Positions 40,464 to 45,358 of a DNA stretch of 64,000 bases are shown piece by piece. The stretch's first letter is position 1, and each line of letters opens with the position of its first letter. Where the stretch lies: NCBI GenBank assembly GCA_047602405.1, contig JASGHJ010000001.1:1216001-1280000 (forward strand), in the 5' to 3' direction. A program made the translations under genes and the position numbers. Source of the stretch: Anaeromyxobacteraceae bacterium. GTDB taxonomy: Bacteria > Myxococcota > Myxococcia > Myxococcales > Anaeromyxobacteraceae. Below the pieces are notes generated by a model that saw nothing but the letters and a program-made list of their open reading frames with translations, was not told the DNA's origin and ran no database searches.

Positions 40464-40500
40464 CGCCCCTCGTCTCCGCCCGCCTGCGGCGGGCTACGCT
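40464..40500 (-). repeat. 3' part of the REP-like element split by the IS110 insertion
   Basis: Minus strand AG|CGTAG-CCCGCC-GCA-GGCGGG-CGGAGACGAGGGGCG; the 5' part lies at 42055-42068. Confidence 0.85.
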
Positions 40501-40517
40501 GCTTCGAAATGCCGGGG

Positions 40518-41772
40518 TTAGGAGGTGACCGCCTCGGGTGTCTGTGAGGTGACGGTCACGCTATAGCCGAGGCGCTCAAGGCGGCGAACGAGGTTCTTGG
40601 CGACGCGCTTTTCGTCGACCCGGTCGAGGTAGGTGTCCCCGAGGTCCTCGTACGGTACGTGTTTCGTGAGGAATCTCATAGGCGGCGTTGAGGATCTTGT
40701 GGGCGATGGCGAAGGTGGCTCGCTTGTGTCCTCGGCGGGCCTTGAGGCGGAAGTACTTGTCTCGCAGGTAGGTCTTCTTGGTGCGGATGGCTGCGCCGGC
40801 AGCCTCGACCAGGGTCGACCGGAGGTGAACGTTCCCCTTCCGCGAACGCCCGGAGCGCCGCTTCCCGGCCGATTCGTCGTTCCCGGGGCAGACGCCAGCC
40901 CAACTCGCCAGGTGGCGCGGGCCGCCGAAGACGGACATGTCGGGGCCGATCTCAGCGAGAAGTGACGCGCTGGTCTGGACCTTCACGCCCGGAATCGTCG
41001 AAAGCAGCTTGACCTGCTCGCGATAGGGCTCGAGTCGGCGCTCGATCTCCCTCTCTAGCGTGTCGACGTCGCGGTCAGCAGCGTCGAGCCGGTCGAGCTG
41101 TAGCCGCAACATGTACCGGTGGTGGTCGCGGAGCCGGCCGTCGAGGGCGGCCTCGAGCTCGGGGATCTTCTTACGTAGGAGCCCTTCGGCGAGCTTCGCG
41201 AGGTTGCGCGGGTCGGATTCGCCATCGGCCATCGCTCGCAGCATCGCCATGCCAGACTTGCCAAAGACATCCGAGGCAACGCTTGCGAGCTTCACGTTCG
41301 CGGTCTCGAGGACCTTCTGTAGTCGATTGCGCTCGGACGTCCGGGCCTGGACGACCGAGCGTCGGTACCGAACGAGGTCCCGTAGGTCGCGAAGGTAGAG
41401 CGGCGGCACGTAGCTCTTGCGGATCAGCCCCATCCTCACGAGTCGGGCAATCCACTCCGAGTCCTTCACGTCCGTCTTGCGGCCTGGGACGTTCTTCATG
41501 TGCTGCGCGTTGCCAACGACGAGCTCGAGCTCGCCCGCCGACTCCAGCACCGCGTAAACGGGCTTCCAGTAGACGCCCGTGCTCTCCATGGCCACGTGCG
41601 TGACGTGCTCCTCGCGCAGCCACTCCACGAGCGCCAGCAAGTCGCGCGTGAACGTCGAGAACTCCCTCACGCACTTGCGCAGCCTGGAGCCCTCTCCCAG
41701 CAGCACGCAGGCCGTCACTTGCTCCTTGTGAACGTCGAGTCCACAGACCCGATCGACAACGATTCCTTCCAT
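40518..41772 (-). CDS. IS110 family recombinase/transposase, +1 frameshift near 40672
   Basis: DEDD motifs GLDVHK, MESTGVYWKP, KTDVKD; LSTIPGV, SWAGVCPGNDESAGK. The corrected frame ends ...LERLGYSVTVTSQTPEAVTS* (about 417 aa). Confidence 0.93.
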
Positions 41773-41788
41773 GACCACCTCCGGGGAA

Positions 41789-41966
41789 GGAGGCGGTCGC
41801 TGCGCCGCGGGGTAGCTTCTAGGACACTGCTTCACGCCCTTCCCAGGCATGCATCTGCCCAGGTACGGCACACCGTGGTACCCATTCGCAGCGCGGGCCG
41901 GTCTCGGGGACGGGGTTCCTGGCAGGACCGCCGAACGTAGCAACGGCCTTCTGAGCGACCACCTCC
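41789..41966 (-). ncRNA. Putative IS110 bridge RNA (target-binding loop 41896-41948; donor-binding loop about 41821-41883)
   Basis: A 13-bp closing stem encloses two stem-internal loop-stem modules; loop sequences match target (GCTACG, CCCCGAG) and donor (GAAGCAG). Folded by eye; boundaries approximate. Confidence 0.75.
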
Positions 41967-42054
41967 GAGGTCGATCGCTACACCGGGACCGCCCGCGCGC
42001 TCAACCAACGGCAGGCATTTCATGCCCCCCGGTGGACGTGTCCGTCCATGAGGT

Positions 42055-42068
42055 CTCGGGGCGAACGG
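42055..42068 (-). repeat. 5' part of the REP-like element split by the IS110 insertion
   Basis: Minus strand CCGTTCGCCCCG-AG. Confidence 0.8.
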
Positions 42069-42161
42069 ACACCTGGATCGTAAAGGCCGCAGGTTCGTCC
42101 CCACACGACCTCACGGGGTCCCCCGTCCGCCGTCCGAGCCTGCCGGTAGACTGCCCGTGCA

Positions 42162-43958
42162 ATGGCCACGAAGAAGCGGTCCCTCATCGCGCCGCCCGGC
42201 GGCCCGGCCTCCGGCCCGCAGGCGCGCCTCGCGCAGATGCGGATCGTCGCGCAGGACCCGTCGGTGCGCGGGAGGCACGGCGAGATCCTCACGGCCGTGG
42301 TCGACGTGCCGGCGGAGACGCTCGCCGCCGGACCGCGCGGCTACCGCGTCCACGTCATCGACTACGACGCCTCCACCGGCCGGCTCTACCCGCCGGTCGC
42401 CTATGACCGCGAGGCCGGAGGCTGGCGCGCCGATCCCGCCGCCGAGGTGACCGAGGAGGTCGTCCTCCGCGACACGGGCTTCCACGCCCAGAACGTCTAC
42501 GCGATCGTGATGCGGACGCTCGCGCGCTTCGAGTTCGCGCTCGGGCGGCGCATCGGCTGGGGCTTCGACGTCACCGGCCACCAGATCAAGGTGGCCCCCC
42601 ACGCGTTCGCGGACGCGAACGCCTTCTACTCGCGCCGCGACGAGGCGCTCCTCTTCGGCCACTTCCCCACGCGCGACGGGAAGGGCCACGTCTTCAGCTG
42701 CCTCTCCCACGACATCGTCGCCCACGAGACGAGCCACGCCGTGCTCGACGGGCTCCGCAAGCGCTTCATGGACCCGTCCTCGCCGGACCAGGCCGCGTTC
42801 CACGAGGGGTTCGCCGACGTGGTCGCGCTGCTCTCGGTCTTCGCCGTGAAGGAGGTCGTGCGCGTGCTCGTCGACGTGCCCGCCGGCGGGCGGGCCGACG
42901 CGCGCGGGCCGCTGCGCGACGTCTCGGTCGCGGCCCTGCGCCGCTCGGCGCTGTTCGCGCTCGGCAAGCAGTTCGGCCGGGAGATGGGCGCCATCGGCCG
43001 CAGCGCCCTCAGGGCCTCGGCGGACCTCGTCGCGCGGCCCGGGCTGGCGCGGCTGCCCGAGTTCGACGAGCCGCACCGGCGCGGGGAGATCCTCGTGGCC
43101 GCGATCCTGCACGCCTTCCTCGCGGTCTGGTCGCACCGGCTCACCGCCCTCCGCAGGCACGGCCCCGTCGATCGCGACCGCGCGGCCGAGGAGGGCTCGG
43201 ACATCGCCGACGACCTCCTCACCGTCGCCATCCGCGCGCTCGACTACTGCCCGCCGGTCCACCTGCGCTTCGGCCACTTCCTCTCCGCGATGGTCACGGC
43301 CGACCGCGAGGTCCGGCCGCGCGACGCGCGCTACGGCGTGCGCGACGCGCTCGTCGCGGCCTTCGAGGCGTTCGGCATCGGGCACGAGTCGGTGGGCCGC
43401 AGGGGCGAGGCCCGCGTCGACCCGGGCTGGCAGCAGGCCACGAAGCGGTTCGACTACGACCGCACCCGCTTCGAGTCGATGCAGCGCGATCCGGACGAGG
43501 TCTTCCGCTTCGTCTGGGAGAACCGGAGGGAGCTCCGGCTCTTCTCCGGCGCCTACACGCGGGTCCTCTCGGTGCGGCCCTGCGTGCGCGTCGCCCCGGA
43601 GGATGGCTTCACGCTCAGGGAGACGGTGGCCGAGGTCTTCCAGCAGCTCTCGATGCTCGCCGGCGAGCTCGGGGCGCACGGCATCGAGAAGCCCGAGGGC
43701 ATGCCGGACGACACGGCCATCATGCTGCTCGGCGGCGTGACGCTGGTCTTCGACGAGTACGGCCACGTGAAGTACACGATCGGCGACTCGGTCCACGACC
43801 CGTCGCGCCCCAACGTGCAGGCGCGGCAGAGCGAGCGCCTGAAGAGCCTCTGGGACCACGGCTTCTTCCGGAGGACCGCGGCGGCGGAGCGGCGCTTCTC
43901 GGCGGTCCACCGGGCGCGCAGCCTCGACCCGGTCACGCAGGCGAAGGAGGCGTGGTGA
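42162..43958 (+). CDS. Gluzincin (M4/M36-like) metallopeptidase, no signal peptide
   Basis: NAFYS, DIVAHETSH (HExxH), AFHEGFAD third-ligand motif. Confidence 0.8.
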   Translation: MATKKRSLIAPPGGPASGPQARLAQMRIVAQDPSVRGRHGEILTAVVDVPAETLAAGPRGYRVHVIDYDASTGRLYPPVAYDREAGGWRADPAAEVTEEVVLRDTGFHAQNVYAIVMRTLARFEFALGRRIGWGFDVTGHQIKVAPHAFADANAFYSRRDEALLFGHFPTRDGKGHVFSCLSHDIVAHETSHAVLDGLRKRFMDPSSPDQAAFHEGFADVVALLSVFAVKEVVRVLVDVPAGGRADARGPLRDVSVAALRRSALFALGKQFGREMGAIGRSALRASADLVARPGLARLPEFDEPHRRGEILVAAILHAFLAVWSHRLTALRRHGPVDRDRAAEEGSDIADDLLTVAIRALDYCPPVHLRFGHFLSAMVTADREVRPRDARYGVRDALVAAFEAFGIGHESVGRRGEARVDPGWQQATKRFDYDRTRFESMQRDPDEVFRFVWENRRELRLFSGAYTRVLSVRPCVRVAPEDGFTLRETVAEVFQQLSMLAGELGAHGIEKPEGMPDDTAIMLLGGVTLVFDEYGHVKYTIGDSVHDPSRPNVQARQSERLKSLWDHGFFRRTAAAERRFSAVHRARSLDPVTQAKEAW

Positions 43959-45358
43959 TGGCGCCCGCCCTGAAGGCCGCGCGGCTGTTCACGTACCGGG
44001 TCGGCTTCGGCGACTGCTTCCTGCTCCGGCTCGAGTACGAGGACCGGCCGCGGCACGTGCTCGTCGACTTCGGCACGACCTCCGCCGCGATCGACCCCGC
44101 GGGCCCGTCCCTCGAGGACGTCGCGAAGGAGATCGCGGCCGACTGCCAGCGACCGGGAGGTCGCTCGGGAACCCAGGGCGGGACGCTCGACGCCATCGTC
44201 GCGACGCACCGGCACCGGGATCACGTCTCCGGCTTCGCGGGTGCGTCGTGGAAGATCCTGAAGGCCTTGAAACCCGGCCTCGCCGTCATGCCCTGGACCG
44301 AGGCGCCGGACGCGCCGGTCGACGGCGGGGTCGTCCCGACCGGCACCCGGCTCGCGATCGGCGAGGCCTCCGTCGCCCACGCGCGGACGCTCCAGGCGAT
44401 CCACCGGGTCGCGGCCGCCGCCGTGAAGGAGCTCGAGCGCCGCGACGGGGAGGACGCGCGCGACGGCGGGACGGAGGAGCCCGACGAGGACGCCGCGTCC
44501 GCCTGGGACGCTGCGGACCTCGGCCCGCCGTCGGTGAACGCGCCCTTCCCGAAGCGGCTCGCCGCGCAGCTGCGCTTCGTCGGGCTCGACAACCTGCAGA
44601 ACCCGGAGGCGATGGCGAACCTGCGCGGCCTCCCGCGGGTCGACTACGTCTGCTACGGATCGAAGACGCGGCTCGAGGACGTGCTCCCCGGCGTGAAGGT
44701 CCGCGTGCTCGGGCCGCCCACGCTCGCGCAGTCGGACGCCATCCGCAGGCAGCGCACCGTCGACCGCGACGAGTTCTGGCACGTCATGGCCGCCGCCGGC
44801 GAGCAGGTCGTGCGCCCCGGCGGCCCGGACCTCTTCCCCGGCGTGAAGACCGTCGGCCCGAGCGCGCTGCCGCTCGAGACCCGCTGGTTCCTGAGGCGGC
44901 TCGACGCGCTCCGCGCCGAGGAGCTGTTCGGCATCGTCCGCGCGCTCGACGACGTGCTCAACAACACGAGCGTGATCCTGCTCCTCGAGCTGCCGGTGAA
45001 GGGCGGGAAGCCGCGGCGGGTGCTGCTCCCCGGCGACGCGCAGCTCGAGAACTGGAGCTACGCGCTCGGGCGGCCGGGCGTGAAGGAGGCGCTCGCGGGC
45101 GTCGACGTCCTCAAGGTCGGCCACCACGGCAGCCTCAACGCCACGCCGAAGACGCTCTGGAACCTGCTCGAGAAGCGCGGCGGGCCCGGGAAGCGCGGCC
45201 GGCTGCGCACCGTGCTCTCGACGCGGAAGGGGAAGCACGGCTCGGCGCAGCGGGGCACCGAGGTGCCGCGCAAGCCGCTGCTCGAGGCGCTCCAGAAGGA
45301 CTCGGAGCTGACCTCGACGATGAAGGGCAAGGCGGTGCCGCCGATCGAGCTCCTGTAG
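43958..45358 (+). CDS. ComEC/Rec2-like MBL-fold metallo-hydrolase
   Basis: VGFGDCFLL, VDFG, THRHRDH, NNTS, LLPGDA, LKVGHHGS; TGATG overlap with AAGGAGG RBS. Confidence 0.85.
   Translation: MAPALKAARLFTYRVGFGDCFLLRLEYEDRPRHVLVDFGTTSAAIDPAGPSLEDVAKEIAADCQRPGGRSGTQGGTLDAIVATHRHRDHVSGFAGASWKILKALKPGLAVMPWTEAPDAPVDGGVVPTGTRLAIGEASVAHARTLQAIHRVAAAAVKELERRDGEDARDGGTEEPDEDAASAWDAADLGPPSVNAPFPKRLAAQLRFVGLDNLQNPEAMANLRGLPRVDYVCYGSKTRLEDVLPGVKVRVLGPPTLAQSDAIRRQRTVDRDEFWHVMAAAGEQVVRPGGPDLFPGVKTVGPSALPLETRWFLRRLDALRAEELFGIVRALDDVLNNTSVILLLELPVKGGKPRRVLLPGDAQLENWSYALGRPGVKEALAGVDVLKVGHHGSLNATPKTLWNLLEKRGGPGKRGRLRTVLSTRKGKHGSAQRGTEVPRKPLLEALQKDSELTSTMKGKAVPPIELL

Follow-up and report, generated by a model that had tools for sequence, protein, structure and literature searches.

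The window, a stretch of 64,000 nucleotides from an Anaeromyxobacteraceae bacterium, contains a mobile element with a recombinase gene, a predicted bridge RNA and two ends that interrupt a repeat (Table 1). The element is a member of the IS110 family, with DEDD RuvC-like and Transposase_20 domains and a core at both ends. These domains were matched by PF01548 with 113 bits and PF02371 with 81 bits, and the NCBIfam IS110 equivalog NF033542 scored 295 bits (cut-off 140). The recombinase is read on the minus strand from an ATG at 41772, and its residues, including the catalytic serine, align with those of IS621. The region of the predicted RNA is the non-coding stretch upstream of this gene within the element.

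Table 1. Features of the element and of the repeat that it interrupts (positions in the window).
Feature	Position	Strand	Remarks
REP repeat, left part, ends in GCTACG	40464..40498	+	interrupted by the element
IS110-family element, both core dinucleotides included	40499..42056	-	1,558 bp; four genome copies, ~99% identical
Right donor arm GAAGC + core AG	40499..40505	-	CT on the + strand at 40499-40500
Right subterminal inverted repeat GGCATTTC	40506..40513	-	
DEDD recombinase ORF	40576..41772	-	D13, E63, D101, D104, S301; frameshifted near codon 366
One-base frameshift site common to all four copies	40672..40674	-	ATT here, AAT in the other three
Predicted bridge RNA	41789..41966	-	outer closing stem 41966-41954 with 41801-41789
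Right donor guide GAAGCAG, then UG	41825..41833	-	GAAGCAG covaries, UG does not
Covarying left donor guide ACCACGGUG	41871..41879	-	6/9 identical to the displaced left-end segment here
Right target guide CCCCGAG + handshake AC	41901..41909	-	covariation
Left target guide GCUACG(UU) = target left arm GCTACG(CT)	41934..41941	-	covariation
Left subterminal inverted repeat GAAATGCC	42014..42021	-	
Displaced segment ACCGGGGGG; the left donor guide matches it in the same sense	42025..42033	-	covariation
Left-end DNA hairpin GGACG-GACA-CGTCC	42034..42047	-	
7-nt left-end arm between core and hairpin	42048..42054	-	covariation with the RNA limited to the first 2 nt (handshake)
CT core, upstream (left) end	42055..42056	+	
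REP repeat, right part, CGGGGCGAACGG	42057..42068	+	interrupted by the element

The reading frame of the recombinase is disturbed by one extra base in 4/4 copies, whereas homologues read through to a conserved tail. A tail homologous to that of the relatives continues in another frame and stops at 40520-40518. In the predicted model of an intact homologue a helix is found at the frameshift position, and the best match of this model is IS621 (8WT9, E 7e-13). A general read error at GATC words was considered as well, and no depletion of those words was found in the genome. A second four-copy IS110-family element of the same genome, which serves as control for read error, is intact. The shared frameshift may be real or may be a site-specific consensus error. 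One copy (G000:C2:3206794-3208409) additionally carries an in-frame 9-bp duplication inside the gene.

The second element is unrelated to the first. Its four intact copies lie near positions 481951, 981994, 1994108 and 2509758 of G000:C2, are inserted before a shared CCACCCAGCAGT motif, and are of the IS1111 type, with the non-coding region downstream and subterminal repeats of 12 bp. Beside the element studied here, two ORFs lie on the plus strand (42162-45358 of the window). The first, of 598 aa, matched nothing in Pfam; the second, of 468 aa, gave a weak hit to the metallo-beta-lactamase fold, below the cut-off.

A comparison of the four genome copies places their ends all at the same point in one repeat, with a CT core that lies on the strand antisense to the recombinase gene in every copy. 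This orientation of the core had been proposed in the initial annotation and is supported by the copies and by covariation; as a trait, it has already been published. The empty site rebuilt from the four copies reads (C/G)CTACG-CT-CGGG(G/A)CGAACGG. The part CTACG-CT-CGGG(G/A) is restored in 4/4 copies, with no target duplication beyond the short core, and the junctions are (C/G)CTACG|CT|GCTTC and GAGGT|CT|CGGG(G/A). The interrupted repeat, which is presumably a REP, is abundant: the word CTACGCTCGGG(G/A) occurs uninterrupted 174 times in the genome, with about 2 occurrences expected. Its outer stem covaries, with TCCC/GGGA in 100 and CCCC/GGGG in 56 of the 174. The GGGG form accounts for 3/4 insertions and 62/174 empty sites, which is too few to speak of a preference. 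The repeat (40464-40498, 42057-42068) folds into a covarying outer stem and an inner hairpin with the CT core in an internal loop, a fold reminiscent of the structural gate of ISPpu10.

Homologous loci (L numbers) were collected in two sets. Set 1 comprised 90 genome loci, 88 of them with upstream DNA, reduced to 64 representatives; L028, L043, L064 and L067 were dropped because of a broken or misaligned RNA. A left end was obtained for 54 loci, and 35 remained after dereplication at 85%. Set 2 was held out and consisted of 80 loci from metagenomes (66 with upstream DNA, 47 with left end), of which 18 were less than 85% identical to set 1 and 16 were kept; the displaced register described below was fixed beforehand. 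L062 and L069 were left out of the protein alignment on account of internal stops. A DNA motif alone served to place the right ends. For the left ends, the best match of a guide in the range of 29-36 nt ahead of a conserved motif was taken, and non-cognate guides were given equal freedom. Related loci are not independent and the permutation tests on both sets ignore kinship, so that permutation p-values overstate the signal and nearest-neighbour comparisons are fairer.

The initial annotation had placed the RNA at 41821..41948. The words that it had recognised lie where they were placed, whereas the RNA reaches further, to about 41966-41789. Folding of a stem-bounded window, with boundaries picked after the fold was seen, gave z = -2.7; an earlier fold on an arbitrary window had given z = -0.16. 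Among 19 sequences, 12 of 21 scaffold pairs were changed on both sides, a number reached in 0/500 shuffles, and compensatory changes were found in the outer stem and in both loop-closing stems. The closing stem that had been proposed around both loops comprises 8 pairs, 5 of them changed on both sides. The loop 1 stem GGCCG/CGGCC (41948-41944/41900-41896, minus strand) and the inner stem CCUGGGCA/UGCCUGGG of loop 2 (41863-41842) are also present. The inner stem UCCUG/CAGGA, as originally drawn, would close a 1-nt loop and had to be given up; the fold takes a 3-nt loop instead. As for the IS621-type bridge RNA, the conserved scaffold upstream of the gene thus contains two internal loops. Three guide words occurred jointly in 0/20,000 dinucleotide shuffles of the RNA, and singly in 2.7%, 4.1% and 0.6% of them.

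The G-U pairs in the stems of the RNA suggest that it has the sense of the gene. A search of the region against Rfam gave no match, and a scan of 41700-42250 for sigma-70 promoters and terminators found none. Within 41793-41777 (minus strand), a CCUCC at the 3' arm of the outer stem could pair either with the 5' arm of the RNA or with the GGAGG ribosome-binding site just downstream. By eye, the two pairings might act as a switch of translation, comparable to the structured 5' UTR of ISPpu9.

In the target loop, the right guide matches its own flank over at least 7 nt in 31/42 distinct guides, compared to 2/1,722 non-cognate pairs, and both bases of the handshake match in 31/35. For the element itself, CCCCGAG at 41909-41903, followed by AC, had been read as the complement of core and right arm; it is present and covaries. 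GCUACG at 41941-41936, proposed to match the left arm of the target, is found there too; it is short and covaries weakly: the mean run is 2.7 for cognate and 1.6 for non-cognate pairs (n=29), with runs of at least 4 in 8/29 and 22/812, respectively. The target loop accordingly matches both target strands, as for IS621-type bridge RNA, with a short left guide. A displaced flank partner for the left target guide was considered and rejected (p=0.35). With 7 nt, the right guides are longer than the native right target guide of IS621 (4 nt, in the parts of PMC11208158 that were covered), as had been suspected, and this length is supported by covariation.

Some relatives (L019-L022, L027, L015, L073) immediately follow another member of the clade, at its right end. 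The sequence of this end (ATGGCAG) is spelled by the right target guide in L019-L022 and L027, which would build head-to-tail arrays. In an element with 13 copies (L031-L042, L047), 11 left flanks read CTTGGCAG and the other flank is loose; here an invariant C is observed one base beyond the guide match.

In the donor loop, GAAGCAG at 41833-41827 had been matched to the donor word CTGCTTC. The guide is present and covaries with the right end: a 7/7 match was found in 20/27 cognate and 5/702 non-cognate pairs of set 1, and in 16/16 of set 2. The dinucleotides after both right guides had been taken as handshakes. This holds for the target loop. For the UG of the donor loop no covariation was seen: both bases match in 3/29 (p=0.05 and 0.36), though many of the flanks are off-consensus sites. 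Wobble-type mismatches prevail by 7 to 1 in the handshake and the right donor guide, as would suit a gene-sense RNA, and are neutral in the other two guides, including the left donor guide (10 vs 12).

The left donor guide GGUGU, already noted as weak, could not be upheld. No covariation was seen in either canonical register (p=0.42 and 0.54 in set 1, p=0.81 and 0.57 in set 2), and no RNA column tracked the bases adjoining the left core beyond the handshake. Instead, covariation was found for the 5' arm of loop 2, the 9 nt of which follow, in the same sense, a segment located 22-30 nt inward of the left end. In set 1 this displaced register matched at 6.26/9 positions for cognate and 4.0 for non-cognate pairs, above all 100,000 permutations (n=35). 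In the held-out set 2 the values were 6.75 and 5.09, above all 50,000 permutations (n=16). When an element's own segment was compared to that of its nearest relative, it matched better in 20, worse in 4 and equally in 11 cases of set 1, and in 9, 3 and 4 cases of set 2. Over all 51 elements the signal forms a single diagonal, with z 5.5-8.5 at guide positions 2-7, and none is seen against other RNA columns. The match is 9/9 in L068, L101 and L167, which contain very different words. Among 25 disjoint nearest pairs, the DNA followed 17/45 RNA differences in both members, and 22 DNA differences occurred without RNA change. Five named plasmid loci were read by eye. The displaced match is 8/9 in Cupriavidus necator C39 plasmid p1 (L173), 6/9 in an ISArsp3-family element and 4/9 in Variovorax, and 9/9 with a one-base bulge in Alicyclobacillus dauci DSM 28700 (L171); the layout of the Bacillus locus (L175) could not be made out. 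These data suggest that the weak left donor guide was misassigned and that the covarying guide reads the displaced segment.

Taken with the stem covariation, the covariation of the guides across relatives supports the original reading of a bridge-type, RNA-guided recombinase. The region is predicted to encode a bridge-type RNA that guides the IS110 recombinase, and programmability can be inferred from the natural covariation.

One could also imagine that the left end is transcribed and that a third stretch of RNA pairs alternatively with the segment or with the RNA arm, the latter having no DNA pairing. Such an RNA switch or antisense RNA, as Asr9 of ISPpu9, seems very improbable here. A search for an RNA-internal partner of the left donor arm gave a slight excess of complements (6.5 vs 6.3, p=0.011), as this explanation would have it, and no diagonal: no complementary column run for the arm exists anywhere in the aligned RNA. 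The arm, moreover, occupies the place of a left guide, opposite the right donor guide. ISPpu9 does possess a structured 5' UTR and an antisense RNA, according to the parts of PMC8450116 that were covered.

The segment read by the left donor guide has a fixed place in the left end. From the core inwards, 7-8 nt lead to a GC-rich hairpin with free sequence. The 9-nt segment comes next and, after another 3 nt, an inverted repeat of 6-8 bp, the reverse complement of which is found 5 nt inside the right core; the two repeats thus lie 33 and 5 nt from the left and right cores. A perfect hairpin of at least 4 bp adjoins the segment in 29/35 elements, while shuffles gave a mean of 2.7 (max 9), and 26 distinct stem sequences are represented. 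The distance from core to stem is 7-8 nt in 37/40 elements with such a stem (51 examined). The inverted repeat covaries between the ends (5.9 vs 4.7).

When the two ends are joined, the predicted junction of the element studied here forms the hairpin with probability 1.0 and the repeat with probability 0.98. Both exceed 0.5 in 29/48 junctions joined by script; the folding windows of the junctions were cut at the repeat, by which their z-scores are inflated. Natural tandem junctions of right and left end are present in the homologues L014 and L015, and that of L015 folds no better than shuffles (z -0.27). Wobble pairs, examined as a sign of the folding strand, were uninformative (2 vs 2).

At 5/120 left ends (L003, L011, L017, L021, L066) a perfect tandem duplication of 12-17 bp of the flank, ending in the core, was observed. 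In all five, AG precedes the first copy, as if a second core 12-17 nt away had been used. Short spacers ending in AG are also found between tandem copies (L006, L172).

The fixed geometry bears on another explanation, an ordinary IS621-like recombination of duplexes in which the left donor guide GGUGU is degenerate and the likeness of arm and segment stems from shared ancestry or a regulatory role. This explanation is improbable, since the geometry is constant while the stem sequence is free, very different words are tracked position by position up to the 9/9 matches mentioned above, and neither canonical register covaries in either set. In its favor, many differences between near relatives are untracked, half-match recognition suffices for IS621 excision according to the parts of a preprint that were covered, and the palindrome mutant of ISPpu9 still circularises (PMC12288879, parts covered).

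An RNA arm with the same sequence as the gene-sense segment can pair only with the CT strand, which is also read by the right donor guide. Both donor guides would then read one and the same strand, as expected if the donor is a single strand folded back on itself. A probability of roughly 0.6 is given to the reading that this is the bridge RNA of an IS110-family element, the donor loop of which reads the joined ends as one folded-back strand.

The following sequence of events can be proposed. The RNA would be made from the gene-sense strand and bind the recombinase. Loop 1 would open the double-stranded REP, the 7-nt right guide supplying most of the specificity. Excision would copy out the CT-bearing strand as a circle. 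At the circle junction, a bubble would be bounded by the inverted repeat and the hairpin; its core arm would have 14 nt, as many as the IS621 window, and its opposite arm 12 nt. The right donor guide would pair with the core and the right arm, and the left donor guide with the opposite arm, as a stand-in for the bottom strand where that of IS621 lies. One strand exchange, followed by replication, would complete the insertion.

Published observations speak on both sides of the folded-back donor. In the portions of the preprints that were covered, a single top strand is excised for IS621 and CazIS110-1, which counts for it. For CazIS110-1, a double-stranded donor is preferred ~20-fold at one junction (preprint, parts covered), which counts against it, as does a left-end palindrome mutant of ISPpu9 that still gave circles by end-point PCR; in the sections covered, the authors leave the role of the palindrome in integration open (PMC12288879). 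Within the element studied here, the displaced match of only 6/9 and the frameshift in all four copies also count against it.

A donor that stays double-stranded would use the same guides. A cruciform could be extruded locally by the hairpin and the repeat, either in a supercoiled circle or at the left end of the integrated element; alternatively, a protein could bind the repeat. The RNA would invade the CT strand at two places. This variant is rather unlikely, though well short of negligible. All sequence evidence is blind to the presence of the partner strand, and the pairs of the left-end stems are almost all Watson-Crick (229/239, from stems that had been picked for such pairs), as a cruciform would have it; the donor preference of CazIS110-1 points the same way. 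A duplex of about 50 bp, rich in GC, would have to open, however, and single-strand excision is reported for two members of the family in the preprint text covered.

The folded-back donor can be extended from this locus to its relatives. The odds lean slightly towards a widespread IS110 clade in which the RNA-guided recombinase is adapted to single-stranded donors. The ends would be a self-folding site, where the cut arm and a decoy 'bottom strand' read by the RNA both come from one strand, and an integron-like single exchange would be resolved by replication. The attC site of integrons serves as an analogy only: it is a single strand folded as a duplex mimic, with one exchange and replicative resolution. 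Unlike the element here, it is handled by a protein-only tyrosine recombinase with no RNA guide.

The closest described systems are compared here as far as the parts of the cited sources that were covered permit. With IS621 and ISCro4 (PMC11208160, PMC11208158; PDB 8WT6-9, 9T56), the element shares a protein with DEDD RuvC and Tnp-serine parts (phmmer E 1e-16), an upstream two-loop RNA with the target loop first, the CT core, the handshake after the right target guide and the REP target. In contrast to IS621 and ISCro4, the core and the 'top' strand are antisense to the gene, the protein has ~410 aa and ~21% identity, the right guides have 7 nt, and an outer stem surrounds both loops. The left donor guide matches a top-strand segment beyond the hairpin and not the core-adjoining arm, the handshake of the donor loop appears not to be conserved, and no sigma-70-like promoter was found in the integrated left end. 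The order of the guides relative to the gene strand is reversed as compared to IS621-type bridge RNA, the bottom-strand guide not being first.

Such a reversed order is known from the seekRNAs of the IS1111 group, where the top-strand match comes first (PMC11187229). ISEc11, ISPa11 and ISKpn4 of this group resemble the element in the top-strand match lying 5' of the bottom-strand match and in the subterminal inverted repeats (PMC11187229). Their RNA is downstream, their proteins have 330-350 aa and their repeats of 11-13 bp lie 7 and 3 bp from the ends (PMC11187229), whereas here the RNA is upstream, homologues have 400-420 aa and the repeats 6-8 bp.

ISPpu9 of Pseudomonas putida, of the IS110 group, is similar in its upstream non-coding region, the AG core in gene sense, the REP target, a palindrome 8 nt inside the left end and the absence of a junction promoter, as described in the parts covered of PMC12288879 and PMC8450116. 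In the supplement of PMC12288879, short complementary words can, in our own reading, be recognised at the inner margins of boxes A and B. The ISPpu9 palindrome is followed by 15 nt, compared to 12 nt here, and its mutant still makes circles. The likeness is one of layout, and neither a guide mapping nor a fold-back was found in the parts of PMC12288879 covered. ISPpu10 (bioRxiv 10.64898/2026.03.19.712850, parts covered) likewise targets a REP, in which a stem-loop precedes the core on its 5' side, and has a strict right and permissive left guide. Its structural gate is situated in the target, however, whereas here it is the element's own end that carries the hairpin, across which a guide reads. 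An element with the RefSeq label of the ISArsp3 family (L174) has a protein 44.5% identical and, by eye, the same end layout and a right donor match of 7/7 beside the displaced match given above; its target differs.

The two-loop logic, the reversed guide order, the AG core, the left-end palindrome, the strict right and loose left guide and the longer guides have thus already been published. The displaced left donor guide suggests a folded donor. Neither a donor guide displaced across a hairpin nor a fold-back donor was found in the text of the literature searched; Extended Data Fig. 10 of PMC11208160 or Fig. S12 of the Evo-PIN preprint may be relevant to the former. A published covariation pipeline, in the part covered, centres short windows of 25 nt on the core (10.64898/2026.10.21.760802). 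With such windows, elements of this kind would likely be scored as having no left donor guide.

Current preprints, in the sections covered, disagree on whether IS110 elements move as circles of single- or double-stranded DNA. A clade with a donor guide that fits only a folded strand makes this dispute testable with few oligonucleotides. The fold-back could also explain the left-end palindrome of ISPpu9, which is so far unexplained. If single-stranded donors work, such a recombinase would be a programmable inserter for ssDNA cargo.
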